Shown here: positions 1,083 to 17,822 of the stretch, piece by piece
How the letters are laid out: the number at the start of each line of letters is the position of its first letter
Numbering within the stretch: the first letter of the stretch is position 1
Assembly: GCA_033764315.1 (NCBI GenBank)
Contig: JANRJA010000103.1
Coordinates: forward strand, 1 to 17,822
Length of the DNA: 17,822 bases
Source: Oculatellaceae cyanobacterium bins.114
GTDB lineage: Bacteria > Cyanobacteriota > Cyanobacteriia > Elainellales > Elainellaceae
Reading direction: 5' to 3'
Notes under the pieces: model-generated
Seen by the model: the letters and a program-made list of their open reading frames with translations, nothing else
Database searches by the model: none
What the model was told of the DNA's origin: nothing
Made by a program: the position numbers and the translations under genes

Positions 1083-1305
1083 ATTTAGGTGTTGCCCCAG
1101 GTAATACCCCTGATATGAAGTTCTGCTATGAAATGTCACTTAACCCCACCGCGGTTCGACGGCTTGACTGATCTTCTCCAAACCCTAATACCAATTCTCT
1201 AAAGTAGCCCCCAAAGAGAGGTTGGGAGGGGTACGTTTTGTAGGGCTGTTTTGCCACCCAGATTTCGTGGGAGTCCTGATCTAGAACCTAGAGTCATTAA
1301 CGACA

Positions 1306-1326
1306 AAGCCCCTGAATCAGGGGCTT
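1306..1326 (-). terminator. Intrinsic terminator downstream of the HU gene
   Basis: Perfect stem AAGCCCCTG-aat-CAGGGGCTT about 40 nt past the HU stop, with a short T tract on the minus strand. Confidence 0.65.
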
Positions 1327-1364
1327 CTAACTCAATTCCAAACCTGTTAATTGATTCGCTTCAA

Positions 1365-1658
1365 TTAAGCAGCTTTGCCATTAGGGGGTGAGACTTTTTC
1401 TTTAAAGAGTTTTCCTGCACTAAAAGCAGGAACACGGGTTGCTGGAATTTTCATTGCCTCGCCACTCTTAGGATTACGACCCTCACGTTCTTTGCGATCG
1501 CGAGGTTCAAAAGTACCAAAACCAACCAACGTAACCTTTTCGCCACCAGCAACGGCATCTTGAATCGCTTCAAATGTAGCTGACAAAATTCGATCAGCTT
1601 CTTTCTTAGTGACCCCTGCTTTTTCTGCAACGGCGTCAATCAGTTCACCTTTATTCAT
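1365..1658 (-). CDS. hup: HU family DNA-binding protein
   Basis: MNKGELI start; VTLVGFGTF, GRNPKSGE and PAFSAGKLFK motifs; GAGGA RBS upstream. Confidence 0.96.
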   Translation of the reverse strand: MNKGELIDAVAEKAGVTKKEADRILSATFEAIQDAVAGGEKVTLVGFGTFEPRDRKEREGRNPKSGEAMKIPATRVPAFSAGKLFKEKVSPPNGKAA

Positions 1659-1827
1659 GAAACTCAGTCCTCACAAGCATCTGGAGCATTTAGAAGAAAA
1701 TTGTAGTGCAGATGTTTAGAAATGAATCAACCAAATCAAGAATTTGATAAAAATCGAGATGAAATGGCTCTGAGTTGGACACTGTCACAGCCCTTGAGCG
1801 ATTTATAGACCGGATCAAACTGCATGG

Positions 1828-2295
1828 TTATGAGTTGATAAGTGGAATAATTTGAGCCTCAATTACAGCTCCGTCAATGTATAGAAAAGCCAGACAGATA
1901 GGCAGTTTGAAGCGTCTTGGTCCGGCACTACCAGGGTTCACAAATAAGACTCCCTGTCGCTCTTCGATCTGGGGTTTGTGAGAGTGCCCACTGACAACGA
2001 CCTGAACCGTTGTTGTTAGTGGGTTCAGGTTAAGATTTTTAATGATGTGGAGCAGATGAATAGAGACCGCTTCAACGGTGACTGTCTGTTGCTCTGGAAG
2101 CACCTCTGCCCAGCCACCCGTGTCATTATTGCCTCGTACTGCGATAACAGGGGCGATCGCCGCCAGTTGTTCTAATATCTCCGGTGTGCCAATATCTCCA
2201 GCATGAAGAATTAAATCGGCTGTCTGAAGAGCATCTATTGCTTCTGGGCGCAATAATTTATGTGTGTCTGAGATGACTCCAACTTTGGTTCCCAT
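1828..2295 (-). CDS. YfcE/MJ0936-type metallophosphoesterase
   Basis: SDTH, HAGD, VRGNND, GHSH and NPGS motifs of calcineurin-like phosphoesterases. Confidence 0.92.
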   Translation of the reverse strand: MGTKVGVISDTHKLLRPEAIDALQTADLILHAGDIGTPEILEQLAAIAPVIAVRGNNDTGGWAEVLPEQQTVTVEAVSIHLLHIIKNLNLNPLTTTVQVVVSGHSHKPQIEERQGVLFVNPGSAGPRRFKLPICLAFLYIDGAVIEAQIIPLINS

Positions 2296-2404
2296 TGATC
2301 AGTTCCATCGATCCACTCTGTTTGCCATCTTCCACATTACAGGGCTTGGCTCAGGTGATCCTCACCCCTGAAGTGACTCTCTTTGTAAACAAACTTCTCC
2401 ATAC

Positions 2405-2431
2405 AAAAACCCCCTGCATTGCAGAGGGTTT
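2405..2431 (-). terminator. Intrinsic terminator of the DUF4278 gene
   Basis: Minus strand reads AAACCCTCTGC-AAT-GCAGGGGGTTTTT, a stem with one G:U pair and a U tail, about 46 nt after the stop. Confidence 0.7.
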
Positions 2432-2477
2432 AGGCAATTGTTATTAACTGTTGTTACCAACTGTTATGGTTCAAAGC

Positions 2478-2918
2478 TTATGCAGCGATTTGATTGAGCT
2501 CTGCTTCTAACATCCGAACTAACTCTTGATCGCCTCGCTCGCGAGCGACTTGAAGACGACGTTGAACGTTTTGCAACAGATTTGCTTTGTGGACTTTAGC
2601 AATGTAGTTGCGAGATAATGCAGCAGGAACTGCTTTTGATGGAGCTTGAGGCTTATTTGCAGCTTGCACAGTTGTCGTGGTCACACCTTGAGCATCTCGA
2701 TTGACATGATAAGTCATGCCCCGATAGATCAGGTCATAGGACGACGGTAGAGGAGCCTGAGCCACTTCAACGGTTGGATCAACCACTTGGGTCGTTCCAC
2801 GATAGGTTAGGGTGTAGGGAGCATGATAACCATTGACCGTTTTGAAAGGGGCATTGGCACCCGTGCTCGAAAGTTCAGGATGATAGTCGTAACTGTTGCC
2901 ACGATAGATGAGTTTCAT
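2478..2918 (-). CDS. DUF4278-repeat protein with a C-terminal PirA-like helical segment
   Basis: Three L(I/T)YRG repeats (MKLIYRGNSY, YTLTYRGTTQ, YDLIYRGMTY). The C-terminus HKANLLQNVQRRLQVARERGDQELVRMLEAE resembles the PII-interacting regulator PirA. Lies downstream of a glutamine riboswitch. Confidence 0.85.
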   Translation of the reverse strand: MKLIYRGNSYDYHPELSSTGANAPFKTVNGYHAPYTLTYRGTTQVVDPTVEVAQAPLPSSYDLIYRGMTYHVNRDAQGVTTTTVQAANKPQAPSKAVPAALSRNYIAKVHKANLLQNVQRRLQVARERGDQELVRMLEAELNQIAA

Positions 2919-2964
2919 AATGTCGCTTCCCCAGATAACTCTAGATTGATTTGTCGAAGAGAAG

Positions 2965-3029
2965 CGCGTTCCTTCGGGGGGTTGTCCCTACTTCCGTCCC
3001 CTTAATGTCATATAGAGGGGATGAACGAT
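2965..3029 (-). ncRNA. Glutamine riboswitch (glnA RNA motif, type I)
   Basis: Minus strand: ATCGTTCATCCCCT...AGGGGACGGAAGTAGGGACAACCCCCCGAAGGAACGCG. It contains the conserved AUCGUUCA, GACGGAAGUAGG and CGAAGGAACGCG blocks with P2 (CCCCT/AGGGG) and P3 stems, in the 5'UTR of a DUF4278 gene. Confidence 0.93.
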
Positions 3030-3039
3030 GTTTTCTTCT

Positions 3040-3053
3040 GTATCTAAATTTAC
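3040..3053. promoter_or_regulatory. NtcA binding site
   Basis: GTA-TCTAAATT-TAC is a perfect GTA-N8-TAC, 10 nt upstream of the riboswitch 5' end, in a position likely to overlap the -10/TSS (repressive). Confidence 0.75.
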
Positions 3054-3315
3054 CATTTTTCAATTTAAAAGCCATATCCCCCAATAGGGTGAAACTGCGG
3101 CTCAGATCGCTATAACCTTTGATGGACAACAGCTTTGGTTTTATAGGGACTGAAAAAGAATAATAAAAATTTATATATCCTCACAAACGCTTTAAATAGG
3201 GATTCCTCTTGATCAGACATCCACGTGTTACCAGTCAAAGAAACTGGATGATTAGGACTGATAGTTTGAACCCCCTTTAAGTAGGAGAACTTAATGAAAC
3301 TCAATTGAGGTGTGG

Positions 3316-3397
3316 GTTTCGACTGCGTTCAACCCGCTGCCAGAGAGATTTAGACATTGAGCGGTTTGTCTTGAGCGAGTCAAATGGGAGTCGAAAC
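3316..3397. repeat. Degenerate REP-like inverted repeat
   Basis: GTTTCGACT (3316-3324) pairs with AGTCGAAAC (3389-3397); internal GCGTTCAA and TTGAGCG half-sites; just downstream of the TetR stop. Confidence 0.4.
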
Positions 3398-3426
3398 GCA
3401 TCTTACCGTTCATGACACCCACCTTC

Positions 3427-4059
3427 TTACACTTGATAGGTTTGTAAATAGGCAGTCAATAGGGTTTTTGTCTCTGCCACAAGCTGTTCTCGGAAACTGC
3501 GATCGCGCGTCAGAGAGAGCCACAATAACTCATTTGTCGTTTTTATCAGCACAGTAGCCATCAACTCACACTTAGATGGCTCTAAGGATGCATTGCGCTG
3601 ATGGAGAAATTGGGCAAGTTCTTGAAAAATCTGGTGATCATAGTCATCTAAGGTACTGGCATCAGCGACTGTCATTAGATCAATGAGTTGCTCTAAAACC
3701 GCTCGATAACCGGGATGATCGGTCGCAAATTGATCAAAGGCATCAATCATCCGATCGATATAGGTGGTGATAGGTGCTGTTGCTAAATCAATATGCAGGT
3801 CTTTAAACAGCTCATACTCTTGCTTAAAGTAGCGATTTGCCAATGCTTTGAGAATTGCTTCTTTGTCTGGAAAAAACTGATAGAGCGACCCAATGGCAAC
3901 GCTGGCACGAGTGGCGATCGCTCGTGTAGTCGTCTGGTCATAACCCACTTCAATAAACAGTTGCTCAGCCACATCCAGAATGTGGTGGACTCGCTCTTGA
4001 CTGCGGGCTTGCTTGGGTTGCCGTCGCATAGTTGAGGGGGGTTGAGAATCAGCCGTCAT
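3427..4059 (-). CDS. TetR/AcrR family transcriptional regulator
   Basis: N-terminal RRQPKQARSQERV..ILDVAEQLF.EVGY..TTTRAIA.RA.VAIGSLYQFFPDKEAI helix-turn-helix. Confidence 0.95.
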   Translation of the reverse strand: MTADSQPPSTMRRQPKQARSQERVHHILDVAEQLFIEVGYDQTTTRAIATRASVAIGSLYQFFPDKEAILKALANRYFKQEYELFKDLHIDLATAPITTYIDRMIDAFDQFATDHPGYRAVLEQLIDLMTVADASTLDDYDHQIFQELAQFLHQRNASLEPSKCELMATVLIKTTNELLWLSLTRDRSFREQLVAETKTLLTAYLQTYQV

Positions 4060-4075
4060 GGGAAGTGAGATATCC

Positions 4076-4129
4076 TTGACAAAATGTGAGCAATGTTCAT
4101 ATTATTGAAATGTGAGCAATGTTCATATT
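4076..4129 (+). promoter_or_regulatory. Sigma70-type promoter of the coq4-like gene with two tandem TetR operators
   Basis: TTGACA (4076-4081), 18-nt spacer, TATTAT (4100-4105). Exact 22-bp direct repeat AAATGTGAGCAATGTTCATATT at 4082-4103 and 4108-4129; each copy is an imperfect palindrome (AATRTGARCA-W-TGYTCAYATT). Confidence 0.8.
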
Positions 4130-4185
4130 CTATCCTGGTTGCGTTTCTTGGTACTTATTCTCATTCATTGATTTAGGAGATCTAT

Positions 4186-4896
4186 ATGCAGTCAATGACT
4201 TCTCAGAAACCGTTGCAAGACCTGTTATGGAGCAATGTGAGAGAGCTTTTTTGGATGTTAAAAGGGGCAAAGGCATTTCTAACGCTGCTGGTTGATGACA
4301 GCGGTAGTCTGGAACCTGTTGATGAGCTAAGCAACAGTTTGGTGGATAGCCGTGCCTTTCAGCTTGCTCTTGCTGATATGAAGACCGTACCTGAGATTGA
4401 GGCTATTATTGCTGACCGCTATATGGCTCCGGCTCACAACTTAGACCTGCTGTTGCAATATCCTCAAGATTCTCTGGGTTACGTCTATGCCAGCCACTTA
4501 AAGCAAGCAGGGTTTAAGCCCCTGACAGCGGCTGTCGAAATTAACTCTGACACTCGCTATGTAGAAAATCGCTGGCAACAAACCCATGACATCTGGCATG
4601 TAATTACCGGATTTGATACCAGTGAAATAGGTGAGATGGGGTTACAAGCCTTCTATTTAGCACAGTTTAAGCTTCCTCTGGCTAGTCTGTTAATTGCCAA
4701 TGCTCTGATTAGTGCCACTGTGTTGCAGCCTGAAGCGTTGTCGCCCCTGTTAAAAGCGATCGCCCAAGGATGGGAGATGGGGCAACTTGCCAAACCATTG
4801 ATTGCTCAAAGATGGGAGGAAGCCTGGGAAAAGCCCGTTTCGGTGTGGCGGACAGAGTTGAATATCAGGCTAGAGGCAGACGATGCGAGAGGGTGA
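4186..4896 (+). CDS. Coq4-family protein
   Basis: Metal motif HDxxH-x11-E (HDIWHVITGFDTSEIGE), preceded by LLQYPQDSLGYVY; AGGAGA RBS. Confidence 0.88.
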   Translation: MQSMTSQKPLQDLLWSNVRELFWMLKGAKAFLTLLVDDSGSLEPVDELSNSLVDSRAFQLALADMKTVPEIEAIIADRYMAPAHNLDLLLQYPQDSLGYVYASHLKQAGFKPLTAAVEINSDTRYVENRWQQTHDIWHVITGFDTSEIGEMGLQAFYLAQFKLPLASLLIANALISATVLQPEALSPLLKAIAQGWEMGQLAKPLIAQRWEEAWEKPVSVWRTELNIRLEADDARG

Positions 4897-5198
4897 GGGA
4901 CTAGCAATATGGTTTTGTGTAGGTTTTATTGGAAAACCCTTCGCCTCACCTATCCTTGGGGACTCCTGATTGTTAGACTTTGGAGCTTACTGGTTGTTAC
5001 AGGCGATGGGAAACAGTTTCCCCTGCAACGCGATCGCCACAGTCTTACTCAGATCCGGGTTTGGGTGTTGTTGGCTAAGATTGACTTTGCCAACTTATTG
5101 GCGATCGCCATTGAGTTAGCTCAACCTGAATTTTGGATTTAATGAGTTTTAGCGACGACTGAAGTAGATGGACAGAATTAACTGAGAAACTGAACTGC

Positions 5199-6596
5199 CT
5201 AAATGGCTTTAGAGAAGCCAGCGGTGGTTCGCTTTTCTAAATAGGTGTCAAACACAGCCGCAATATTACGAATCAACAAACGCCCAACAGGAGTGACTTG
5301 AATGTGATTAGGCGAGTGTTCAATTAATCCATCTCTTTCAAGTTGGTTTAAAGCGGGTTGCTCTCTTGCAAAATAGTCATCAAATTCTTGGTCAAAACTT
5401 AGATGATACTTCTCTTGCAACGCTTCTTTTGACAGTTGAAATTGACACATCAACTCCATGATGATGGTACGACGAATGATATCTTCATGACTTAGAGATA
5501 CTCCTCGCTCAATCGGCAATACATCTGAATCGATCGCCCGATAAAAGTCTTTTAACCGTTTGTGATTTTGCACATACACATCATGCAACATGCTGATCGA
5601 AGTCATGCCAAAGCTAACCAGATCAGATTCTGGTTTAGTGGTATAACCCTGAAAGTTTCGATGCAGTTGTCCGTCTCGTTGAGCGATCGCCAGTTCATCA
5701 GTGGGCTTAGCAAAGTGATCCATCCCAATGTAGGTATACCCGTTGCTGGTTAGCTCCTCAATGGTCATTTGCAGCATATCTAACTTTTCAGATGTTTGCG
5801 GCAGTGCCTCCTCAGGAAGCCGACGTTGAATTGGTTTCAGCCAGGGTACATAGGCAAAGTTAAAAACGGCAATGCGATCGGGGTTAAGCGCGATCGTTTG
5901 TTGAATCGTTTCTTTAAACGTTTCTCGCGTTTGATGGGGTAAGCCATAGATTAAATCGACATTGACACTGTCAAATTGAGCTTCGCGCATCCAATCCATC
6001 ACGCTGAACAACTGTTCTTTGGGTTGAATACGGTTAATTGCTTCCTGCACCACTGGGTTGAAATCTTGAATGCCAAAACTAATGCGGTTGAAACCTAGCG
6101 TTCGCAAGAACTGCACATACTCTCGATCGAGATAGCGGGGATTGACCTCAATTGAAATTTCAGCCGCTGGGTCAAACTTAAAGCGGTTATGAAGTGCTGT
6201 CCACAACGTTTCAACTTGTTGAGTTGAGAGATAGTTGGGTGTGCCGCCGCCCCAATGCAATTGCTGAACTGGGCGATCGCTGTCAATCAAGACGTCCAAT
6301 TGGTGAATATTGCGAATTAAGTAGTCAATATAAGGATCAGCAAGTTCTTTGCGTGATGTAATAACTGTGTTGCAACCACAAAAATAACAAGCTGTTTCAC
6401 AAAACGGAATGTGACAATACAACGATAGGGGTGTTTTTTTATAGTTGCCTACTGCGATCGCCGCTCTAAAGTTGATGTCCTCAAACTCAGGCTTTAACTC
6501 GGTTGCAGGAGGGTAGCTCGTGTAACGGGGAAGAGCTTGGTCATACTTGCGGAGCAATTGTGAATCAAATTGAACGGTAGGCAGCGAAAGGCTCAT
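5199..6596 (-). CDS. hemN: Oxygen-independent coproporphyrinogen III oxidase (radical SAM)
   Basis: PRYTSYPP, HIPFCETACYFCGC (CxxxCxxC), HWGGGTP, GMDHFA and RNFQGY motifs. Confidence 0.97.
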   Translation of the reverse strand: MSLSLPTVQFDSQLLRKYDQALPRYTSYPPATELKPEFEDINFRAAIAVGNYKKTPLSLYCHIPFCETACYFCGCNTVITSRKELADPYIDYLIRNIHQLDVLIDSDRPVQQLHWGGGTPNYLSTQQVETLWTALHNRFKFDPAAEISIEVNPRYLDREYVQFLRTLGFNRISFGIQDFNPVVQEAINRIQPKEQLFSVMDWMREAQFDSVNVDLIYGLPHQTRETFKETIQQTIALNPDRIAVFNFAYVPWLKPIQRRLPEEALPQTSEKLDMLQMTIEELTSNGYTYIGMDHFAKPTDELAIAQRDGQLHRNFQGYTTKPESDLVSFGMTSISMLHDVYVQNHKRLKDFYRAIDSDVLPIERGVSLSHEDIIRRTIIMELMCQFQLSKEALQEKYHLSFDQEFDDYFAREQPALNQLERDGLIEHSPNHIQVTPVGRLLIRNIAAVFDTYLEKRTTAGFSKAI

Positions 6597-6646
6597 GGAC
6601 AGTGGTTCTCTCTAAATGATGAATGGGAGGATGGGACAGTAAACTG

Positions 6647-6686
6647 ATGTCGGGTGCATCCTTTAGTTAGAAATGCACCCTGACAT
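6647..6686. repeat. Intergenic stem-loop between ho and hemN (REP-like or mRNA-stabilising)
   Basis: ATGTC-GGGTGCAT ... ATGCACCC-t-GACAT inverted repeat. Confidence 0.5.
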
Positions 6687-6699
6687 TTGGGCAAGTCGG

Positions 6700-7485
6700 C
6701 TAAATGCTATATTCCGCTATGGGTTTTGTCGTTGGTTGATGAGGCGATTCAGAGAAATTCTCTCCGTGGGGCGATCGCTCAGTGGCTCCAGGAATTGTTT
6801 GACGAGTTAGCAGATCAAACACGTGCTCACCAACAACGGCTTTAACATCGTCTTCTAAAGCATGAACCACATCCCGATTTAAGGTAAATGCATAGTTTGC
6901 CTCAGCGATGATGTGCTGAATCGTGTCTTCATCAACTGGCAGCGCATTTAGTGCATCCCGATATTTTTCCTTAAACAATCGCTTGGCTTCAGGCGTTGGC
7001 AACTGTTCAAATTCGTGCAGGGCAGTTCCCTGATCAACAGGCAAGTTCATCGCACTGCGAACAATATTTTTGAGTGCTTGTCCTCCAGATAGATCGCCCA
7101 TATAGCGAGTGTAAGCGTGGGCAATGAGCAAGGCGGGGTTAGTGCTGGCAACCTCATGGATGCGATTGACATATACTTCACCTTCAGGCAAAGGAGAGAT
7201 TTGGTCGCGCCATGTATCGCCATAATAATAAGCTAAATCTCTCTCTAGATTGGCCGTGCGGTTGATCTCTGGAAAATAAAGTAGCTTCACCGCGGGATGA
7301 TCTTGATGCTGGCGCAATTCATCTTCTAGCGCACTATACACAAAATAAAGATTGGCTAACAGTTTACGGAAGGGTTCGCGTTCTACAATTCCTTTCAAAA
7401 AGCATTTCATGAATGCAGTGTTTTCAGCTGCCGTATGAGAGTGTTTAGTGCCTTCTCGTAGGCGTTGGGCTAAATCATGGCTCAT
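6700..7485 (-). CDS. ho2: Heme oxygenase (biliverdin-producing), probably the low-O2 isoform HO2
   Basis: LREGTKHSHTAAEN and HAYTRYMGDLSGGQ motifs. The true start is probably ATG at 7485 (MSHDLAQ), which has a GAGGA RBS, rather than the track's 7542. Isoform inferred from clustering with hemN and acsF. Confidence 0.92.
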   Translation of the reverse strand: MSHDLAQRLREGTKHSHTAAENTAFMKCFLKGIVEREPFRKLLANLYFVYSALEDELRQHQDHPAVKLLYFPEINRTANLERDLAYYYGDTWRDQISPLPEGEVYVNRIHEVASTNPALLIAHAYTRYMGDLSGGQALKNIVRSAMNLPVDQGTALHEFEQLPTPEAKRLFKEKYRDALNALPVDEDTIQHIIAEANYAFTLNRDVVHALEDDVKAVVGEHVFDLLTRQTIPGATERSPHGENFSESPHQPTTKPIAEYSI

Positions 7486-7663
7486 GGGACATTCCTCGTT
7501 ATTAAAAGCAAAACTGAAGCGAGTAGACATCTTATTAAGCACTTTATAGCTATTTGGTGATTAAATGCATCACTTTTCATAACTTAACGATTATCCAAGC
7601 TTCTTTGGAGCGATCTTTACAATCCTGTAATGAGTATTGCGCTCATTTCACCATTATCATAAC

Positions 7664-7677
7664 TTGATAGCTATCAA
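7664..7677. promoter_or_regulatory. Perfect 14-bp palindrome identical to the FNR-box consensus (TTGAT-N4-ATCAA)
   Basis: TTGATAGCTATCAA, 23 nt upstream of the acsF ATG in the ho/acsF divergent region; the binding protein is unknown. Confidence 0.45.
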
Positions 7678-7700
7678 CTCTTATTAGCGATCTTCAGCAT

Positions 7701-8774
7701 ATGGTCAACTCTCCATCCAAGCCTGCTTTGCAGATGTCAGAAACCAAAACGAAGGCACTAACAGAAAACATTCTGACTCCTCGTTTTTACACAACCGATT
7801 TTGAAACCGCAGCAGGGCTAGACTTATCCGCTCAAGATGCTGAGTTACAGGCGATGCTGGCAGAGATGCGAGCTGATTACAATCGTCATCATTTTGTGCG
7901 CGATAGTGCATTTGAGCAATCGTGGGATCACATTACGGGTTCGACGCGCAAAGCTTTTGTCGATTATTTAGAGCGATCGTGTGTTTCAGAATTCTCTGGG
8001 TTTTTGTTGTTTAAAGAACTCTCGCGCAAAGTCAAAGAACGCAGTCCACTGTTATCGGAAATGTTTAGCCTGATGGCACGCGACGAAGCCCGTCATGCCG
8101 GGTTTCTCAACAAAGCTATGGGAGATTTTGGCTGCACGATGGATTTGGGGCACCTCACTAAAAATCGGGTTTATACTTTCTTTCCGATCGAATGGGTGCT
8201 TTATACGGTTTATCTTTCCGAAAAGATTGGCTATTGGCGTTACATCATCATCTATCGCCATTTAGAAAAACACCCAGAAAATGAGTTTTATCCTCTGTTT
8301 CGTTATTTTGAGAGTTGGTGTCAGGATGAGAACCGTCATGGCGATATTTTTAAGGCATTGTTGCGGTCTCAATCCAATCTCTGGAAGACCTGGCAATCTC
8401 GCCTGTGGAGCCGATTCTTTTTGCTGTCTGTGTTTGCAACTCATACGCTGACGGTGCATGAACGTGCGGAGTTTTACCGCATTTTGGGGCTTGACCCCAC
8501 TGAGTTTGATGCAGCCGTGATTCGTAAGACTAACGAGACAGCAGCGCGAGCTTTTCCATCGGTCTTGGATACCGACCATCCTGAATTTTTCCAACGACTG
8601 CATCACTGCTCTAATCTCAATCTACAGATATCCCAGATCAGTGGCAGCACCCAGCCCAAGTGGCTAAAATCAGTCCGCAAATTACCGTTACAGTTGGCTA
8701 TTGTAGGTCATCTGTTGCGCCTTTATTTGCTCAAACCGATTGATGCAGAAGCCCTGCGAGCAACAGTTCGTTAG
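7701..8774 (+). CDS. acsF: Mg-protoporphyrin IX monomethyl ester (oxidative) cyclase, probably the low-O2 paralogue (ChlAII/AcsF2)
   Basis: LTPRFYTTDF, DYNRHHFVRD, SEFSGFLL, RDEARHAG, SEKIGYWRYI and QDENRHGD di-iron motifs. Confidence 0.97.
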   Translation: MVNSPSKPALQMSETKTKALTENILTPRFYTTDFETAAGLDLSAQDAELQAMLAEMRADYNRHHFVRDSAFEQSWDHITGSTRKAFVDYLERSCVSEFSGFLLFKELSRKVKERSPLLSEMFSLMARDEARHAGFLNKAMGDFGCTMDLGHLTKNRVYTFFPIEWVLYTVYLSEKIGYWRYIIIYRHLEKHPENEFYPLFRYFESWCQDENRHGDIFKALLRSQSNLWKTWQSRLWSRFFLLSVFATHTLTVHERAEFYRILGLDPTEFDAAVIRKTNETAARAFPSVLDTDHPEFFQRLHHCSNLNLQISQISGSTQPKWLKSVRKLPLQLAIVGHLLRLYLLKPIDAEALRATVR

Positions 8775-8809
8775 CGGGTTTATTAGTGCCCTAAAAGAAT
8801 TATTTTGAG

Positions 8810-8860
8810 GTAAGGATGTGGCGCATTTTGTACGACACATCCTAAACCAGTAAGGATGTG
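8810..8860. repeat. REP-like hairpin and direct repeat between convergent genes
   Basis: AGGATGTG (8813-8820) pairs with CACATCCT (8836-8843); GTAAGGATGTG is repeated at 8810 and 8850. Confidence 0.45.
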
Positions 8861-8863
8861 CCT

Positions 8864-9343
8864 TTATCGATTAGAGGTTGCTGCTGCGTCAGTAAAAATT
8901 GACACAGAATATTGACCGCTAGCCGCAGAATCAGGCGCAGCAATAATCACACGATACATTCCAGCTTCAGATAGGCTAAAGCCTGCGGAAGCTCCGTTGG
9001 AGGTGGAATGGGTCTCCAGGTTTTGAATAGCAGGAGAACTGGCATCTCGAATCAACTCCCCGTTTGAGGCAATCATGGCAATGATGTTATAACCAGAGTC
9101 CAACAAAATTAGATTGGCTGGAAACTCATTACTAGACCAGTCGATGCGAATGGGAATATTAGCATTGCCCTCAAAGGTGTATTCATCATAGAAGATGCCG
9201 CTGGAGGACAGCGTCGAATCACCCGTTTCAAGCACACCTGTTTCTTGCAACAAAATTTCAGAGCTAGACTGTGCTCCCGCTTCTAAATTCACTAGAAGCA
9301 AGGAGGCCACTAAAGAGACCAGAAGAAGAGGAAAGGCTCTCAC
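8864..9343 (-). CDS. Secreted protein with a pre-peptidase C-terminal (PPC)-like domain
   Basis: Hydrophobic signal peptide ending AGA-Q; G.L..GD...FYDEYTFEG...I...S.EF...LILLD and L..AG.YRVI...GQYSV patterns; GTG start with a TAGGA RBS. Confidence 0.7.
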   Translation of the reverse strand: MRAFPLLLVSLVASLLLVNLEAGAQSSSEILLQETGVLETGDSTLSSSGIFYDEYTFEGNANIPIRIDWSSNEFPANLILLDSGYNIIAMIASNGELIRDASSPAIQNLETHSTSNGASAGFSLSEAGMYRVIIAAPDSAASGQYSVSIFTDAAATSNR

Positions 9344-9690
9344 AAACGTATCCTACTTAAAAATGAGGTTGGCATTGGATTCAGTGTGAGTTTATGCCAT
9401 CTCAACAAAATCCTCAACCATTAAGGCAGCAATTTTTGTGATGGACAATGAGGTCTAGAGAGTACTTAGGAACGGCTCCGATAGAGTCATAGGACTGGTT
9501 TTTAAGGCACCCATCAAACATAGGAGGCTGCTAAACACTAATCTTTGAGTGTATTGAAGAATAGTTTTCACAGCCGTCTTTTGATTTTTCTGCTACGCCC
9601 CTTCTTGCAAATTTTGTCTCCTTGGACTCCCTGTGTTGGAGAATAGTGCAAGATCTCAGATAACCAAAAATGCTTTTGCCTATCAGTAAA

Positions 9691-10761
9691 TTACAAGCAA
9701 TCTCGATTTTCCACTGTATTATCAGGCATGGTAGTGCGACACAAAATAGCTCTTTCCACAACTGGCGACTTAGCTCCACTTAAACTAGCACCAGTTAAAT
9801 TTGCTTTAGTCAATGTAGCTCCTTGCAGGTTAGCTTCAGTCAGATTAGCTTCCTCCAGGTTAGCATTATAAAAATTAGTGCCGTTCAAGTTACTGCGGTA
9901 GAAGCGAGCCTTGACTAAAGTAACATTCATCATCTCAGCATTACTCAGATTAGCTCCTACTAAATTCGCATCACTCAGGTTACTTCCTGTAAGATCTGCC
10001 TCTTCCAAATGAGCATTTCTAAAATTTACATACTCTAATTTAGAATTACGAAAATCTGCTCTCGTCAGACGTGCGTATTCTAAATTAGCCCCTCGAATAT
10101 CTACTTCTTTAAAGTCAATAGGAGGAATATCTTCTTTCTCATACATATTGAGTAGTCTTTTAATTACATCTAAGGCTGCTTGAACATCAGTTGGAGGCTT
10201 TGGCGGCGTTTCTGGCTTCTGATTTTTTTGCAAAACAATCTGCTGAAGATGAACTTTGCGAGCTTCCCCCTCTAGAGAAGAAGTTGGACGTTTTACAAAG
10301 GAAGTACATTCTCGAATATAGGTAATCAAAACTTTGATAACAGCTTCTCGATCCCTTAGGTCTTGGGCATCTCTAGCAATCCACTCAAAGGTATAAATTC
10401 CACCTAAACGAATTTCTAATCGTTCATGCCCAAGCTGCTCCACGGCTTTAGAAAAGCGATCAGTAATCAGCCGAGCTTCTGCCAAACTAGCATTTGTCTG
10501 GGCAATTCTAGTGTTTTTCTGAGCATTGAGAAGATTAAGAAAAACAACTATTCCTCCTATGATTGTTGCTAATGTTCCAATGAAATTAAGGATGAACTTA
10601 GCTTTTTCTTTATCTTCAACTAGCGTCCATAAACGTGTCATTTCTGACCAAATCTGCAGTTTTGTGTTAATGGCTACAATGGTTATTGTTACAATCCCCA
10701 ACAACAGAACTAGCAATAACCATTTTTTCGATTTGTAAAGAAATTTTGTAATTACAGGCAT
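9691..10761 (-). CDS. Membrane-anchored pentapeptide-repeat protein
   Basis: Two N-terminal hydrophobic helices, the conserved ITDRFSKAVEQLG..RLGGIY and PTDVQAALDVI blocks, then roughly 20+ AxLxx repeats. Confidence 0.9.
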   Translation of the reverse strand: MPVITKFLYKSKKWLLLVLLLGIVTITIVAINTKLQIWSEMTRLWTLVEDKEKAKFILNFIGTLATIIGGIVVFLNLLNAQKNTRIAQTNASLAEARLITDRFSKAVEQLGHERLEIRLGGIYTFEWIARDAQDLRDREAVIKVLITYIRECTSFVKRPTSSLEGEARKVHLQQIVLQKNQKPETPPKPPTDVQAALDVIKRLLNMYEKEDIPPIDFKEVDIRGANLEYARLTRADFRNSKLEYVNFRNAHLEEADLTGSNLSDANLVGANLSNAEMMNVTLVKARFYRSNLNGTNFYNANLEEANLTEANLQGATLTKANLTGASLSGAKSPVVERAILCRTTMPDNTVENRDCL

Positions 10762-10770
10762 TCTCTCAAC

Positions 10771-10806
10771 AGTGATTGTTATAAACGACGGTAGTTAACC
10801 ATCACT
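10771..10806. promoter_or_regulatory. Inverted repeat in the 75-bp divergent promoter region (candidate operator)
   Basis: AGTGATTGTTA-N14-TAACCATCACT (10 of 11 complementary). Confidence 0.4.
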
Positions 10807-10836
10807 AAATTAACTTGTGTTGAAGAATGAGGATAG

Positions 10837-11571
10837 ATGTCAAATAAAATTTTTATTACTTATTGCTTTGAAGATGAGCGAATAGCAGCAGAGGTTGTAC
10901 AAGCTCTTAGTAAAGTTCAAGGGTCTAGCCTTATTCCTTATATCAAACAGAGAGAACTAAGTTCTGTAGGTTCCTCTACTCAAGAATGGCTTAATGATAT
11001 TGAGGAATGGGATCACGTAATTGTTCTAGTTTCATCCTCATTTCTAAAGCTATTCTCTCAATTTCAGCAGGATCTTGATCAATGGATTCTAGAGTGCGAT
11101 CGCCAAAAAATTTTACTATTGCCACTCCTGGTTCATCCCTGCTCAGTATCATCGTTAATGTCAAGCATTATGTATGCTGACTACAGCCAGGATCAATTAG
11201 GGGCTTTAGAGAAGCTGCAAGCAGCGTTTGAACGAGCAGCAATGCCCGGTGTGGAACCACGACGTAGCCAAAAATCGAGTCTAGCAAGAGAATTAGCTAG
11301 TCAACCCCGATTGATTATTGCAGAGATCGCTTCGACCTGTTTAACTTCAAGTGATTTTCAAAGTTTTCTACAAGCCACTAATATTAGTTGGAGTTGTACT
11401 GGTTTGGTGCAACAAGACATCCGCCAATTTGTTGTAGATTCGCAAGAAGCTCAAGTAGAAGAGTTTGCTTTTTGGTTAGTTCAAGATGATTTACGGATAG
11501 AGATCATTCAGCAACGATTAGCTGAAGTAACAACGACTGCTAGGAAAGGTTGGCTATCTCGATTTATTTAG
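10837..11571 (+). CDS. TIR-domain protein (degenerate) with an uncharacterised helical C-terminal domain
   Basis: KIFITY..ED...A..V..AL, IEEWDHVIVLVSSSFL and KILLLPLLVHPC...L.SIMYADY follow the bacterial TIR_2 pattern; GAGGA RBS. Confidence 0.75.
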   Translation: MSNKIFITYCFEDERIAAEVVQALSKVQGSSLIPYIKQRELSSVGSSTQEWLNDIEEWDHVIVLVSSSFLKLFSQFQQDLDQWILECDRQKILLLPLLVHPCSVSSLMSSIMYADYSQDQLGALEKLQAAFERAAMPGVEPRRSQKSSLARELASQPRLIIAEIASTCLTSSDFQSFLQATNISWSCTGLVQQDIRQFVVDSQEAQVEEFAFWLVQDDLRIEIIQQRLAEVTTTARKGWLSRFI

Positions 11572-11589
11572 AATTCTCCTAAACATACT

Positions 11590-13062
11590 ATGAACATTAC
11601 TCAAGAGATTGATGTATTCCTAGCTGGTAAAATTCCACGTCAGTTAATTGAACGATTTGATAGTGATATTGATATCCCACTTGTACACAGTCGCTGTACT
11701 GGCCTGTTAGAAATGCTCAATGCGTATGATCCACACCACTCTAAAGACGTACTTAAACTCGCAGAGCGTGTTGGAGCCTACTGGTGTCGCATTGTGCAGA
11801 GTGATGTACTCTACAATCGTTTAGCTGGATTAGAAGCGATTGAAGTATCTCAGGCAGATGCTAAAGCTCTGGCTAGCAAAGTTTTGAATAATGAACTTGG
11901 CTTAAGTGATGAGAGCGATCGCCGCTGGGTTACCTATGCCGTGGCTCGATGGCATGATGGAGCGGGAAAAATTTATTATCGGCTCGCTGAATATACTCAA
12001 GCAAATGACCTACTTGAAAACGCTAAACAATTGGCACAGCATGCTGATCTTTGGTATTGCCTTCCTGATATCCAAAGCAACGTAGTACGAGCCAATTTTG
12101 AAGCTCAACGAATTGCTGGTAGACCTATGAATCATGAAACCCTGATCGAAGAATTTAGAAACTTATTCTCAGAAGTTCGTGATGATTCAGTTGATGTCGC
12201 TGTACCCAACATTAATGCTGATCTTGAGTCTTTTGTTACAATTCCTCTACAAAATATCTCTCCACAAGAAAAAGAATTTTTTAGGGGGATATCAAGTCTT
12301 TTGCACAATTGGTCAGTTGCATATTATGACCAGTACAAAAAAGAAACAAAAAATGAGCAGAACTTAGACCGCTCACTGGAACTTTCACAGAAGTCAGAAG
12401 CGATTTGCCGTCAATTGGAAGATGATTATCGCCTATCTCAAGCACTAAATCATCAAGCATTAATTGAAAATGAAAGGAGAAATTGGAATATAGCTCGAAA
12501 ATTATTTGAAGAAGTCACTACCCGCAAATGGATTCGAGGAAAGCGCATTGCCCGACAGCGGTTAGCCGAAATTGATGCTGATGAGGGAAATTTTGATAGA
12601 GCATTTAAAACTATTGAGCAGTTAATTAGTGAGTTACGAGAAGAGCGTCAACGTCAACGGGGTGAATTAGGTTATGACAACCATTTTCTTTACTACACAG
12701 TCAATGTTGTTTTTAAGAAAATTCTTGAAGCTGCTCAAGAAAAACGAGTGAAATTAGTTGAAAGACAGCTTAGTTATTATCAAAATTTATTCCAAGAAGA
12801 ACAGTTGCAAATGATTCGTTCTGTTCGTAATGTTGTCAAGATATCAACTTATAAAAATGATTTTGCCAAAATCTTTTATCCTATCTATCAAGATTTGATT
12901 GGAGGGCAAATCGCACCCATTCTTACTTCAGAAAAAACTCTTAATCAAAAAGTGGAGTTAAAACATTTAGAGAAGGCGTTTAGTTTTGTTGAAGAAGCAA
13001 GTAGCCGTGAATTGCTTGATCTTTTGCAGTCAGTTCAATTAGACGAAGAACAAGAATTTTAG
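11590..13062 (+). CDS. TPR-repeat protein; N-terminal half of a TPR-CHAT protein
   Basis: TPR-like helices (GKIYYRLAEYTQANDLLENA, SQALNHQALIE..RNWNIARKLFEE, LAEIDADEGNFDRAFKTIEQ). Ends with AFSFVEEASSRELLDLL, the AF..AE.AKAR.LLDLL motif that precedes CHAT domains. Confidence 0.8.
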   Translation: MNITQEIDVFLAGKIPRQLIERFDSDIDIPLVHSRCTGLLEMLNAYDPHHSKDVLKLAERVGAYWCRIVQSDVLYNRLAGLEAIEVSQADAKALASKVLNNELGLSDESDRRWVTYAVARWHDGAGKIYYRLAEYTQANDLLENAKQLAQHADLWYCLPDIQSNVVRANFEAQRIAGRPMNHETLIEEFRNLFSEVRDDSVDVAVPNINADLESFVTIPLQNISPQEKEFFRGISSLLHNWSVAYYDQYKKETKNEQNLDRSLELSQKSEAICRQLEDDYRLSQALNHQALIENERRNWNIARKLFEEVTTRKWIRGKRIARQRLAEIDADEGNFDRAFKTIEQLISELREERQRQRGELGYDNHFLYYTVNVVFKKILEAAQEKRVKLVERQLSYYQNLFQEEQLQMIRSVRNVVKISTYKNDFAKIFYPIYQDLIGGQIAPILTSEKTLNQKVELKHLEKAFSFVEEASSRELLDLLQSVQLDEEQEF

Positions 13063-14411
13063 TGGAGAGTAAGCATATGGATAAGGGACAGGAGTTGAAT
13101 ACTACTGAATCCGCACATTCCGATCCTTTCTATGGAAAACGGCGGAGTAGTTTACGCAGGCAAGAATCTGTTGATGAATCTGTCATTAAGGTATTAAGCC
13201 AACGTAGAAGCGATTATGATGCTTGGTCATTAAAACATCCCATCACGACGACTCCCCATAATAGTGAGATTGCCTATGAAATTCGTATGTTCACTGCTAA
13301 TCATCCAGGAACTGTTATTCTTCGATACTTCCTTTATAAAAATCCATCCTTAGAAAACAATAATTTAGAACTGGGTGTTTATATTTTCCGTGATGCCAAG
13401 ATGGACTGTATTCCTTTAGATTGGAGGCATGTTATACAAGCGATCCAACAGTGGAATGAAACACTGAAATTGACAGCTAATCCTGATACCCGGATTACAG
13501 AATTGCAAGCAGCATTGTGCAACAGTAGTGAGCAACTTTCCCAGTGTTTACTTAAGCCTATTTGGAAACATATCGGCAGAATTGATCAGATTCAACACTT
13601 AGTTATTATTCCTGTTGAAGAACTATTTCGTGTGCCATTTCATATTGCCTTTATGCCAGGAGAACAAATTCCTTTATGTGCTGTTGTTCCTCTTTCTTTC
13701 TCAGTGAGTGCTGCTGCTTTTGTAGGCAGAGGAAGACATTTATTCCGTCGGCAGAGAGTTGAGCATACCGATGATTTGTGTGCCCTAATAGTGCAACGGG
13801 GCGAAAACGATGTAAGTGGCAAGGAACTGGTCAATCTTAACTGGGATGAAAGGCATTTTCATATTGCAGGGAACAAGAAGCAGTTACCTGATTTTATTGG
13901 TTCATATCAATATGTAGGGAGTGCAAACCAAGCGGGTTTAGAAAAACTGGTACAGCAAAAACCAGAATTTTTTATTTATGGTGGTCATGGAGAGTACCAC
14001 AATAGTTATAGTATTTTAGGTCCTGCATTAATATTGGAAGAAGAAGGCAGCTTTTTAACTCAATTTGATATTGCGATGGGATTGCGTTTGCCTAGAAACA
14101 AATTGACCTTATTAGGTGCTTGTGTTTCTGGTCAAGGAGTTAATCTAGGTGGAGGTGAGGTTTCAGGATTCCTTCGTGCTTTTATAGCGGCTGGATGTGG
14201 AGCCATCGGCATAACACTTTGGGAAGTATTGGATGATGAAATTGCTAATAGTGTTCGACATCTTCTCAATCAAGCCAAAAAATCTGCGGATGATCCTTCT
14301 TCGGTATTTGATGTGGTGCAGGAACTACATCAGTATTATAAAAACACTTGTTCATCATTAGAGTCTGTCGCAAAACAGATTGAAGCCTGCCCATTTGCAC
14401 TGTATCTTTGA
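13062..14411 (+). CDS. CHAT-domain caspase-like cysteine protease (HetF family); start uncertain
   Basis: HLVIIPVEELFRVPF motif; catalytic His in IYGGHG (13986-13988) and Cys in LLGACVSG (14121-14123); GFLRAFIAAG....TLWEVLD motif. Confidence 0.88.
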   Translation: MESKHMDKGQELNTTESAHSDPFYGKRRSSLRRQESVDESVIKVLSQRRSDYDAWSLKHPITTTPHNSEIAYEIRMFTANHPGTVILRYFLYKNPSLENNNLELGVYIFRDAKMDCIPLDWRHVIQAIQQWNETLKLTANPDTRITELQAALCNSSEQLSQCLLKPIWKHIGRIDQIQHLVIIPVEELFRVPFHIAFMPGEQIPLCAVVPLSFSVSAAAFVGRGRHLFRRQRVEHTDDLCALIVQRGENDVSGKELVNLNWDERHFHIAGNKKQLPDFIGSYQYVGSANQAGLEKLVQQKPEFFIYGGHGEYHNSYSILGPALILEEEGSFLTQFDIAMGLRLPRNKLTLLGACVSGQGVNLGGGEVSGFLRAFIAAGCGAIGITLWEVLDDEIANSVRHLLNQAKKSADDPSSVFDVVQELHQYYKNTCSSLESVAKQIEACPFALYL

Positions 14412-14441
14412 ACCTAAAGTTTTCAAAACGTACCTATTCCA

Positions 14442-15095
14442 ATGCAAATTCATTATTTATCAAAGGTTTTAACTCAACATCCCAATTTTTCTCCAGGTTG
14501 GCATCCACAAGGAATAGATTGTCCTCTTACTGGTGAAAAGTTTGGCACAATTCTGCATATCGTTGTTTGCAACGATGCAGGGTATCCCCTTTATGACCAA
14601 CCCGTATGGGCAGAGCCAGTTGGGGCAATTATAGTGCCAGTCGATGAAACCGGCAGAATTGGATTTATAGAAACATTCCGGGTTGCGCCCCCGGCTAAAG
14701 GAAATAGGAGCATTTATCCCCCTACTGAACTTAATCAGCATGGTTTGTTGTCTCTTGAGCTACCACGTGGCTTTCCCGAACAAGGTGAAGCACCGGAGGA
14801 AACGGCGCGACGGGAAACCGAGGAAGAGATGGGAATCGTAGTACGAGATGTTGTTTTACTTGGAGAAAATAATACAAATACGACGTTTTTCTTAAACAAT
14901 ATTCCTGTTTGGCTTGCCCATGTTGACAAAGAAGCGACAACATTACAGTCTCCCGATCCCATCGAATTGATTAGGAAAACAAAATTTTTCTTAGTCTCAG
15001 AGGTGATGGATTTAATAACATCTGGAAGGATTGTGTGTGGAATAACAAAAGCAGGTCTTCTTCATTACCTAGCATGGCTCCAGCAGGGGTCATAA
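14442..15095 (+). CDS. Nudix hydrolase, ADP-ribose/NDP-sugar pyrophosphatase-like
   Basis: Complete Nudix box G-x5-E-x7-RE-x2-EE-x-G-U (GFPEQGEAPEETARRETEEEMGI), preceded by LELPR. Confidence 0.9.
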   Translation: MQIHYLSKVLTQHPNFSPGWHPQGIDCPLTGEKFGTILHIVVCNDAGYPLYDQPVWAEPVGAIIVPVDETGRIGFIETFRVAPPAKGNRSIYPPTELNQHGLLSLELPRGFPEQGEAPEETARRETEEEMGIVVRDVVLLGENNTNTTFFLNNIPVWLAHVDKEATTLQSPDPIELIRKTKFFLVSEVMDLITSGRIVCGITKAGLLHYLAWLQQGS

Positions 15096-15237
15096 TTTGA
15101 CTGGTAACTGTATGCTTGATTTTTGAGACTCAGTAAATTATTGGTGAATTTTTAAGCGGCATGAACAACGACGAAATGGTACGAGTTATTCTAGTAGTGG
15201 CTTGTGATTAAGAAATGTAAATAGATGTAATTCGGAT

Positions 15238-16299
15238 ATGACAGGATCTCGCCGATTGCTTGTGACGGGAGGAGCTGGATTTATTGGTTCCAATTTTGTT
15301 CATTATTGGTGCGAACAATATCCGAGCGATCATATTGCTGTATTAGATAACTTAAGTTATGCAGGGAATCGTAGTAATCTAGCATCTCTCGATGCTAATA
15401 CTAATTTTCGATTTGTACAGGGAAGTATTAGCGATCGCCCTTTAATAGAAGAGCTTCTAAATGATGAAGCGATTGATACAGTTGTCCACTTTGCAGCAGA
15501 ATCTCATGTTGATCGATCAATCTTAAATCCTGGTGATTTCGTTCAAACTAATATTGTTGGAACGTTTACGTTGCTGGATGCTTTTCGGTGTTATTGGGAA
15601 GCTAGAGACAAGCCTAACGATTATCGATTTTGTAATATTTCAACAGATGAAGTATTTGGGAGTTTAGAAGATGATGCGCCTGCTTTCTCAGAATCAACTC
15701 CTTATGCTCCAAATAATCCCTACTCTGCATCGAAAGCAAGTGCAGATCACATCGTTAGAGCTTATTTTCAAACCTATGGACTACCTACACTTACAACAAA
15801 TTGCTCCAATAATTATGGGCCCTATCAATTTCCTGAAAAACTAGTTCCATGTGTATGTACTAGTGTTTTAACTGAGCAGCCTATATTCATTTATGGAGAT
15901 GGGCAGAGTATAAGAGATTGGATTCATGTGAGAGACCATTGCACGGCTCTAGATAAAATATTGAGTAGCGGTAAGCCTGGAGAAACCTACAATATAGGTG
16001 GCAATAATGAAGTGAAAAATATTCATTTAGTCCATAAAATATGCAATTTATTGCAAGAATTAGTTCCTAATTTAACCGTTTGTCCCCATTATCTGATTCG
16101 ATTTGTTGCAGATCGACCTGGACACGATCGCCGTTATGCCATTGATGCAACAAAGATCCAGACGCAATTAAATTGGCATCCTAGTATTAGTTTTGAAGAA
16201 GGTCTGAAACATACAGTCCAATGGTATGTTGAATATAAAGATTGGTGGTTGCCACTGCTAAACCGTAATGACCTCACTCCAATTCATTTGAAAGTTTAA
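15238..16299 (+). CDS. rfbB: dTDP-glucose 4,6-dehydratase
   Basis: VTGGAGFIGSNF, HFAAESHVDRSI, STDEVFG, YSASK, CSNNYGPYQFPEKL and DRPGHDRRYAID motifs. Confidence 0.95.
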   Translation: MTGSRRLLVTGGAGFIGSNFVHYWCEQYPSDHIAVLDNLSYAGNRSNLASLDANTNFRFVQGSISDRPLIEELLNDEAIDTVVHFAAESHVDRSILNPGDFVQTNIVGTFTLLDAFRCYWEARDKPNDYRFCNISTDEVFGSLEDDAPAFSESTPYAPNNPYSASKASADHIVRAYFQTYGLPTLTTNCSNNYGPYQFPEKLVPCVCTSVLTEQPIFIYGDGQSIRDWIHVRDHCTALDKILSSGKPGETYNIGGNNEVKNIHLVHKICNLLQELVPNLTVCPHYLIRFVADRPGHDRRYAIDATKIQTQLNWHPSISFEEGLKHTVQWYVEYKDWWLPLLNRNDLTPIHLKV

Positions 16300-16371
16300 A
16301 GCAATTTATTCGATTGCCATAGTGGAAGCGTAAGCGGTTGCTCGTCGGGATGCGAAGCAGTTTCCCCTTAG

Positions 16372-17815
16372 CTCGACTTTATCCAAGTTAGGTAGCATAG
16401 CACAACAGGCTAGACCAGCAATCTAGCAAGGGTTTTGGTATTTTTACCATATCGGTTGCTGCACCAGAGAACTGAAAAAGTCGGATTTGCCAAAACCGTT
16501 GACGGACCAAAGCTAACGCATCAATGAACGTGGGTAGCTCTTTGTTATACCAAGCCGATTGAGGCAACAAGAAACTCATTTGTGATTGCAATTGATGGGC
16601 CAGCAGAACAACCATTGAGAACAAAGCAAGCAGAGCAGGGGTCGTGCGTAGAATCGCTAAGTCTGACCACTGCCGTTGAGTTTCCACCCCTAAATGCGCC
16701 CGCACTTCCTCAAACGTCACTTCCACTTGCCAGCGTTGCCGAAACCACAACAAGATTTGTTTAGGGGTGGCGTTCAAATCCGTCGAGAGAAATGCTTGCG
16801 GCTCAAACTTGCCCTTTGGGTCTTTGACGAGCACCCAACGAATCGGCACCGCAGGCAGTCCACTGTGATACCACACAGCCGTTTGAGAGGTAATCTGAAG
16901 CTTGCAGCACCGTCCCCCATACCACCCCTTGAGATGCACAGGTAGCCAAACCGTTTCTGGGTTCTCTAACAGCTTGTGCAGGGTGGGTCGCCGCTTGCCA
17001 ACCTTGCGGGGTCGTCCCACCTGCTTCGGTTCGCGCTGAGGAGCAGGATCATAGAGAGCAGCATCCAGGCGTAAACGGGTCACGACATGAACGGCTTTGG
17101 GCAGTTGCCGGAGCGCCTCAAGCAACTCCAGGGCAGCAAAAGAGCTATCTGCCACCAGGACAATGGCACGCTGAGGCACCCATCGTCTGACTTGAATTAA
17201 CATCTGTCGTGCCCAATCCGTCAGGGTTTTATGACGTTGATGGTGCAGTTGGTCATAGCGCTCTGAGGGCGCTAAAACGGTGAAACAGGGCAGTGCCCAC
17301 ACTCGCTCTGCCCAAGGAATCTTCACCAGCAGCATCAAACTCAGCCAGCGCAATCCACTGGTTTTGACAAAGTGACTGTCACTGGAACACACCGGGTCAC
17401 GGTAAATGCCTCGGGCTGCAATGCGTTTGCCCCATCGTCGCTCAATCGTGTCATCGATACCCATCACGAGTACCCCTCGGGGGGCAAAGACTTTGACTAA
17501 TTGTTGCAGGAGCAATCTGCTGGCATGACGACTCGACCACACCGCACGATTGAGCACCCGATGGTATCTCTGAAATTGCAACTCCTGCTCTAAGCCCATC
17601 ACTCGTAAAATGGCACTCACTGTCCGCTTCCCAGGAGCCAGGATTGCACCGACTAACAGCACCACGGCTGATTCCCATACCGGCTTGGAAAACAATGGGG
17701 CAAACGTTACGATTAAGGGTAGAAATTCTTGCGGTAGCAGGTTCATCAGGATAAATCCAACAACTCTTTCCTGATCTTGCTACCTTTCCTCCACTTCAAA
17801 ATGGATAAAGTCGAG
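16372..17815 (-). mobile_element. Complete IS701-family insertion sequence (1444 bp)
   Basis: Perfect terminal IRs CTCGACTTTATCCA (16372-16385) and TGGATAAAGTCGAG (17802-17815), flanked by the direct repeat CTTAG (16367-16371 and 17816-17820). Confidence 0.92.
16388..17746 (-). CDS. IS701-family DDE transposase
   Basis: Uninterrupted 452-aa ORF with IDDT, VADSSF and RWQVEVTFEE catalytic motifs, lying between the IRs. Confidence 0.93.
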   Translation of the reverse strand: MNLLPQEFLPLIVTFAPLFSKPVWESAVVLLVGAILAPGKRTVSAILRVMGLEQELQFQRYHRVLNRAVWSSRHASRLLLQQLVKVFAPRGVLVMGIDDTIERRWGKRIAARGIYRDPVCSSDSHFVKTSGLRWLSLMLLVKIPWAERVWALPCFTVLAPSERYDQLHHQRHKTLTDWARQMLIQVRRWVPQRAIVLVADSSFAALELLEALRQLPKAVHVVTRLRLDAALYDPAPQREPKQVGRPRKVGKRRPTLHKLLENPETVWLPVHLKGWYGGRCCKLQITSQTAVWYHSGLPAVPIRWVLVKDPKGKFEPQAFLSTDLNATPKQILLWFRQRWQVEVTFEEVRAHLGVETQRQWSDLAILRTTPALLALFSMVVLLAHQLQSQMSFLLPQSAWYNKELPTFIDALALVRQRFWQIRLFQFSGAATDMVKIPKPLLDCWSSLLCYAT

Positions 17816-17822
17816 CTTAGAA

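Follow-up and report, generated by a model that had tools for sequence, protein, structure and literature searches.

The window analysed here, 17,822 nt long, is one entire contig of the 6.6-Mb, 90.7% complete assembly of Oculatellaceae cyanobacterium bins.114. It carries five open reading frames (ORFs), all on the + strand (10837-11571, 11590-13062, 13062-14411, 14442-15095 and 15238-16299), with 18 nt, a 1-nt overlap, 30 nt and 142 nt between consecutive ORFs. They lie in an AT-rich block (9500-16366; GC content 39.1-39.2%, compared with 44.9% in bases 1-9400 and 47.6% in the genome) next to an insertion sequence (IS). A preliminary description of this DNA had reported the same arrangement, with which our coordinates and base composition agree, and had proposed an undescribed defence or cell-death locus comprising a TIR protein, a TPR/CHAT caspase, a Nudix hydrolase and possibly RfbB. 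From that proposal we retain a recurring conflict or cell-death locus made of a TPR-gated CHAT protease and a Nudix hydrolase, and drop TIR as a core gene and RfbB as a member. We favour the reading that the locus was acquired horizontally and represents a protease-gated cell-death module, probably anti-phage, in a variant that is related to CATRA systems and has no CATRA. The genes concerned are:

11590-13062, + strand: N-terminal (TPR sensor) half of a protease of about 900 aa, matching residues 1-463 of the homologue P0001 (43%, frame 1)
13030-13079, + strand: one-base frameshift zone in the linker, with a GTG overlapping the stop codon and, 9 nt ahead of the ATG at 13077, a GGAG
13062-14411, + strand: C-terminal CHAT caspase-like half, matching P0001 residues 462-903 (51%, frame 3; Pfam CHAT)
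14442-15095, + strand: Nudix hydrolase, ADP-ribose pyrophosphatase-like (Pfam NUDIX, E = 4e-11)
10837-11571, + strand: TIR domain (residues 5-126) with a C-terminal helical domain (Pfam TIR_2, E = 3e-8), occupying a variable slot

Pfam recognizes CHAT with E = 1e-15, while TPR matches in the 11590-13062 ORF are weak and below the cut-off. The His/Cys dyad (His309 at 13986, Cys354 at 14121) and the Nudix box (residues 110-132) are both intact, as had been noted before. All 37 homologues among longer proteins (877-1880 aa) match both the TPR and the CHAT ORF, and in 62 of 68 loci that we fetched (45 genomes and 23 metagenome contigs) the two halves form a single ORF, the remaining six being cut by contig ends or IS elements. 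We therefore rejected independent evolution of the TPR and CHAT genes; homology identifies the two ORFs as halves of one protein of about 900 aa. An exhaustive search yielded 101 family members, 67 of them full length. The family has no sequence match in the PDB, and the folds closest to the P0001 model (predicted local distance difference test (pLDDT) score 86.8) are Csx29 and separase, with RRNPP receptors at Z 19-21. Three fused proteases (P0009, P0010 and P0034) carry an extra N-terminal domain of about 300 aa that has no Pfam match.

The best solved relatives of the window's Nudix protein are ADP-ribose pyrophosphatases (E = 7e-13), and its NCBIfam scores are all below cut-off. A proline after the Nudix box is a signature of ADP-ribose pyrophosphatases; it is missing in the window and present in several relatives. 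Using a profile built from 28 of these loci's own proteins, we found a Nudix gene within 3.5 kb of the protease in 57 of the 68 loci (46 downstream, 2 upstream on the same strand and 9 divergent), with a gap of 3-66 nt in most of the closest loci. In nine of the 11 loci without a near Nudix gene the contig stops no more than 1.5 kb away on one side, and one of these nine carries a related Nudix gene 6.6 kb away. Used alone as query, the window's Nudix protein gave 52 matches, 50 of them adjacent to the protease, and 7 of 24 Nudix homologues were linked indirectly to the source of a fused protease. Clustering exceeds chance for TPR-CHAT with Nudix, and does not for RfbB. The synteny envisaged in the preliminary description is thus borne out for TPR-CHAT and Nudix (57 of 68 loci, six phyla) and not for TIR.

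Every one of the 28 aligned Nudix proteins preserves the box, and the two Nudix clades share only 21-27% identity. The window-type clade has its own insertions, an Asn-rich motif after the box and clade-specific conserved residues outside it. Subgroups of the protease and Nudix trees match (both are quick trees, and kin share labels). Searching 752 genomes with the window-type alignment returned three matches, each adjacent to the protease and similar to rows of the alignment, and no stand-alone copy of this clade in the other 749. A housekeeping NudF was rejected as the identity of this protein, since the window's genome has a separate NudF-like gene (C209) and the clade has its own insertions and motif. 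Co-folding of the TPR half with Nudix scored 0.31 against a mark of 0.32 and counts neither way. Gene neighbourhoods indicate that Nudix, and not CATRA, is the steady partner of the protease.

CATRA conflict systems, which reportedly combine a caspase and TPR with CATRA-N/CATRA-C (PF20269/PF20270) and CATASP (PF20271), are said to have been described by Burroughs and Aravind in 2020. CATRA-N/C proteins flank 38 of the 68 loci and CATASP-like ORFs, some weak, occur in 35; all CATRA loci placed in the protease tree fall within a 48-row, mainly actinobacterial clade. CATRA proteins (8240-9862 in L033, and 37 other loci) end in four hydrophobic helices, and their fold weakly resembles CorA/Mrs2 channels (Foldseek E = 1.6e-3; Z 11.2, root-mean-square deviation (rmsd) 3.3, 127 aligned), values that helical proteins commonly reach. 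In these 38 loci the caspase belongs to the same protease family, so the locus cannot be called undescribed: according to the excerpts of the literature on which we draw here and below, CATRA is a predicted caspase-dependent conflict system (PMC8195603), CATASP has been named in print (PMC12642450, 10.64898/2026.10.19.760177) and CATRA-CATASP is listed among protease-linked modules of poorly understood function (PMC12642450). Neither the window nor the assembly contains CATRA-N or CATRA-C, and our own CATASP profile, positive in 35 of the 68 loci, found nothing in the six-frame assembly. CATRA-N was likewise absent from all five genomes of the loci near the window's and from three further CATRA-less genomes, in a search that recovered it in both genomes where it was known.

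Among the 30 CATRA-less loci, 13 have a known or predicted conflict effector beside the core. The slot is taken by a gasdermin (L005, E = 8.5e-35 to a solved gasdermin, and L050), a C14 caspase (L018, L028, L050, L053 and L054), a second CHAT (L014, L051 and L052), an alpha/beta-hydrolase (L014), a TIR protein (L003 and L013), an Mrr-like nuclease (L007) or an FGE-sulfatase domain (L006); in P0003, TIR and nSTAND1 are fused to the protease. None of the 38 CATRA loci matched these non-CATRA effector profiles. In L005, from Syntrophobacter, the gasdermin gene (13604-14548) directly follows protease and Nudix, and no other caspase-family gene was found within 20 kb. On the metagenome contig L050 (7110-9963), gasdermin, caspase and TPR-CHAT genes form an operon with gaps below 10 nt, possibly a protease cascade. 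L014 (13689-21206) is a small caspase-rich island in which protease and Nudix precede genes for an alpha/beta-hydrolase, a TCAD7-CHAT protein, a further CHAT protein and a TIR protein.

The window's TIR protein aligns over both domains with those of L003 and L013 at 22-26% identity, and has no homologue among proteins of 134-427 aa. In a three-sequence alignment, Gln82 or Asp79 sits at the position of a glutamate that L003 and L013 retain; this residue is the catalytic glutamate of TIR domains. The L003 tail matches EAD7/EAD1 at 0.80-0.81, under the tool's bar and a lead only, whereas the window's tail has no usable match and a weak link to that of L003; EAD7 has no match in the window's genome. 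TIR was rejected as a core gene because it adjoins the core in just two of the 68 loci (L003 and L013), apart from the P0003 fusion. With the glutamate also missing, the earlier suggestion that TIR is the signal source is not supported, and the window's protein is best read as a putative degenerate effector or as a decoy or substrate. In related systems, enzyme domains that have lost activity have been noted (PMC7159879).

Hosts belong to Cyanobacteriota, Actinomycetota, Myxococcota, Thermodesulfobacteriota, Pseudomonadota and Planctomycetota and are mostly mycelial, filamentous or social bacteria. Among 401 genomes of the phylum and 57 of the order, the window's own genome is the only one in which the protease was found; a 94-aa match in G344 (E = 4e-4) was dropped as generic TPR. 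Third-position GC of the five genes is in the lowest 0.1-2.1% of 2474 long ORFs, and a same-genus genome shares the upstream genes and lacks the AT-rich block at that site. Together with the patchy spread, low GC and the missing block suggest that the block was probably acquired horizontally. No relatives were found in viral contigs or annotated phages, and one plasmid record of 72,556 carried a relative. L091, on a linear Embleya plasmid (NZ_CP108778.1), has the two-gene core beside tyrosine recombinases and no recognized effector. In L074 of G513, a PD-T4-4/PDC-M47-like defence pair (1727-3681) lies about 4.5 kb from the core.

We consider a conflict or cell-death role for the module quite likely, and we lean towards the protease activating the slot protein; an ADP-ribose-type trigger, with Nudix as its eraser, is a tentative proposal. 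In this scheme the TPR solenoid would bind a single conserved ligand, for which ADP-ribose or a derivative freed by NAD+ cleavage during infection is the likeliest candidate. Binding would activate the His/Cys site, the protease would cut the slot protein and the cell would die or arrest, while in healthy cells Nudix would hold the ligand below threshold. Of the 68 conserved columns in the TPR half, 39 hold polar, charged or aromatic residues, eight arginines among them, and its invariant positions are for the most part polar or basic. This pattern suggests that the ligand is a single conserved one and not a variable phage protein, and the constant Nudix partner points to an ADP-ribose-type molecule. 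As far as the excerpts go, gasdermins are activated by CHAT proteases and alpha/beta-hydrolases are zymogens that proteases switch on (10.1101/2021.06.07.447441, PMC12642450), NAD+ and ADP-ribose are targets of Nudix domains in conflicts between virus and host (PMC9503650), and the TPR domain of type VIII Thoeris is presumed to perceive cyclic ADP-ribose (cADPR) (10.64898/2025.12.03.692087). The trigger is the weakest step of the mechanism. More doubtful is an extended version, in which the solenoid would be a receptor for ADP-ribose or one of its derivatives, guarding against NAD+ breakdown from any source, phage enzymes and other defence systems alike, Nudix would set the threshold and the executioner would be a plug-in (CorA-like CATRA, gasdermin, hydrolase or TIR-adaptor), with two-chain operation possible.

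Several observations weigh against this interpretation. The conserved TPR residues might just as well contact a peptide, in line with the Z scores of the RRNPP receptors, or the protease domain. No enzyme making an ADP-ribose signal is constant, which leaves the trigger without a visible source. Seventeen of the 30 CATRA-less loci, many of them short contigs, have no recognized effector, and the Catellatospora loci L008 and L009 are real misses, in which the protease stands without Nudix or effector. Because the profiles for effectors and Nudix derive from the loci themselves, positive matches arise partly by construction, and 24 loci form one Streptomycetaceae clade with several near-duplicates, so that the counts overstate independence. 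The L050 gasdermin has its own caspase. Wider flanks (125 + 22 ORFs chosen from about 25 loci; 237 candidates listed) are mostly metabolic or housekeeping, with a few transposases and integrases; this counts against a defence-island setting, and the nearness to defence islands raised in the preliminary description is weak. No PADLOC model matches the core, which in that database is unnamed; the preliminary description had not recognized the gene combination as a named system. Finally, the window's own protease gene is frameshifted and its TIR degenerate.

This last point bears on an alternative to which we give slightly less than an even chance, namely that the window's copy is a decaying remnant, or its frameshift an assembly error, the split having killed the protease and TIR having drifted. 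The split recurs in none of the 68 loci; in a quick tree the window's protease falls in a 10-row clade whose named members are cyanobacteria and whose nine other members are all fused. Between the motifs flanking the break there are 89.67 codons, compared with 88-94 in six close relatives, a spacing that fits one missing base at a run of T and, with the fused homologues, upholds the frameshift suspected in the preliminary description. An IS adjoins the block, another cyanobacterial copy (L013) is interrupted by an IS, one protein cluster includes both a 516-aa fragment and a 909-aa member, and the TIR protein is as divergent from its relatives as described above and lacks the glutamate. On the other side, the window's protease keeps 130 of 139 conserved columns, the break is predicted to fall in a disordered linker (pLDDT <50 in the P0001 model) and the second half has a plausible ribosome site. 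Seven members besides the window's end at profile positions 449-459, compared with five ending anywhere in 460-800, so a two-gene form may be natural; five of the seven come from contigs of 5-25 kb, and one carries a partial tag. Five divergent members (P0047, P0073, P0084, P0085 and P0090) end just past the last helix of the TPR half, like the window's ORF, and possibly represent a natural split or a sensor-only subfamily. A linker RR...R motif occurs in 20 of the 32 homologues in which the upstream motif was found, and we speculate that self-cleavage there would explain tolerance of the split. The chances that the window's own copy is still functional are about even.

The other alternatives concern the module as a whole. 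Nudix could be a guarded partner or decoy that restrains the protease, with a phage protein or loss of Nudix setting it free; this would account for the tight co-inheritance, the short gaps and the clade-specific residues outside the box, but we think it unlikely, given that the box is intact in every aligned member, that the clades are so divergent and that the genes are divergent in nine loci, all of which fits activity better than a fixed complex. Less likely again is a developmental or stress-signalling protease circuit of filamentous bacteria, to which the host lifestyles, the housekeeping flanks and the CorA-like channel architecture of CATRA lend themselves; the very patchy spread and AT-rich insertion argue against it, as do swaps among gasdermin, nuclease and caspase, which are typical of conflict systems. 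We regard as very unlikely a Thoeris-like scheme in which an NAD-derived signal from TIR switches on the CHAT protease and is turned over by Nudix. TIR stands beside the core in the window and in two further loci, L003 and L013, whose TIRs keep the glutamate; P0003 has it fused to the protease, and type IV Thoeris offers a precedent (10.1101/2024.10.24.620036, in excerpt); against this stand its rarity among the loci, the Gln or Asp in the window's protein, and the adaptor-like tail of these TIRs, which alternate with other effectors.

Among the closest known systems, CATRA shares the TPR-CHAT family, which it neighbours in 38 of the loci, and caspase and TPR are present here, in two ORFs; unlike CATRA systems, the window and assembly lack CATRA-N/C and CATASP, two defining features. 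Gasdermin-protease operons share the sensor-fused CHAT protease, found beside a gasdermin in L005 and L050, whereas the window has no PADLOC bGSDM match and the excerpted description of such operons does not mention Nudix. Craspase Csx29 is the closest solved fold to the P0001 model (Z 26.4, rmsd 7.7 Å, 531 aligned, 12% identity), but the partner here is Nudix, sequence matches in the PDB are lacking and no Cas gene or CRISPR array occurs in the 9-17.8 kb part of the window or among recurring neighbours, the rest of the genome not having been searched for Cas7-11. Type IV Thoeris (TIR-caspase, signalling by N7-cADPR) likewise pairs a TIR gene with a caspase-like protease. It is, in the excerpt, a two-gene operon whose protease has an extra C-terminal domain, whereas here there is an N-terminal TPR solenoid, TIR is optional and without the catalytic glutamate, and Nudix is present; in the accessible part of a survey of new Thoeris types, CHAT and Nudix do not occur. 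The NudF subfamily supplies the best-scoring solved relatives, with an intact Nudix box, and differs in lacking the insertions and Asn-rich motif of the window-type clade. The window's locus is neither type IV Thoeris nor Craspase; by analogy, the module would work like gasdermin- or Craspase-type sensor-gated proteolysis. We found no description of a CHAT/TPR plus Nudix system in the literature, the original CATRA description, subscription papers and bioRxiv supplements being outside the scope.

Three further features lie in or next to the AT-rich block:

15238-16299, + strand: RfbB, dTDP-glucose 4,6-dehydratase, a bystander (TIGR01181, 473.6 bits against a cut-off of 365.1)
16367-17820, - strand: IS701-family element, a bystander that ends the contig (NF049999, above cut-off)
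9691-10761, - strand: pentapeptide-repeat protein (two hydrophobic segments at the N terminus), encoded divergently from TIR by a gene as AT-rich as the module

RfbB, tentatively included in the preliminary description, was rejected as a module member: it lies near one of the 68 loci, there on the other strand, and 12 of 12 family relatives have it. It is the only close copy in the assembly and is 66% identical to the same-genus copy, compared with 89% for a neighbouring core gene, which suggests a foreign copy replacing the native one or an assembly gap. The IS701-family element has 19-bp terminal inverted repeats at 16367-16385 and 17802-17820. No homologue of the pentapeptide-repeat gene, which the AT-rich block takes in, lies near any of the 68 loci. 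Promoter and terminator scans gave results at chance level. Positions 5199-8774 hold genes that we take to be hemN, haem oxygenase and acsF, a low-oxygen tetrapyrrole cluster; two relatives keep this group, while their hemerythrin and pentapeptide genes are arranged differently.

These findings bear on how bacterial CHAT proteases are activated, those next to gasdermins and CATRA among them. Our analysis recasts CATRA-CATASP as one interchangeable effector of a protease whose intact operons are identified here in Tumidithrix (L003), Syntrophobacter (L005) and several Streptomyces. The copy in the window is of lesser importance, unless it proves to be a natural two-chain form. A single constant enzyme partner would narrow the trigger to the Nudix substrate, which a small panel of nucleotides could test.

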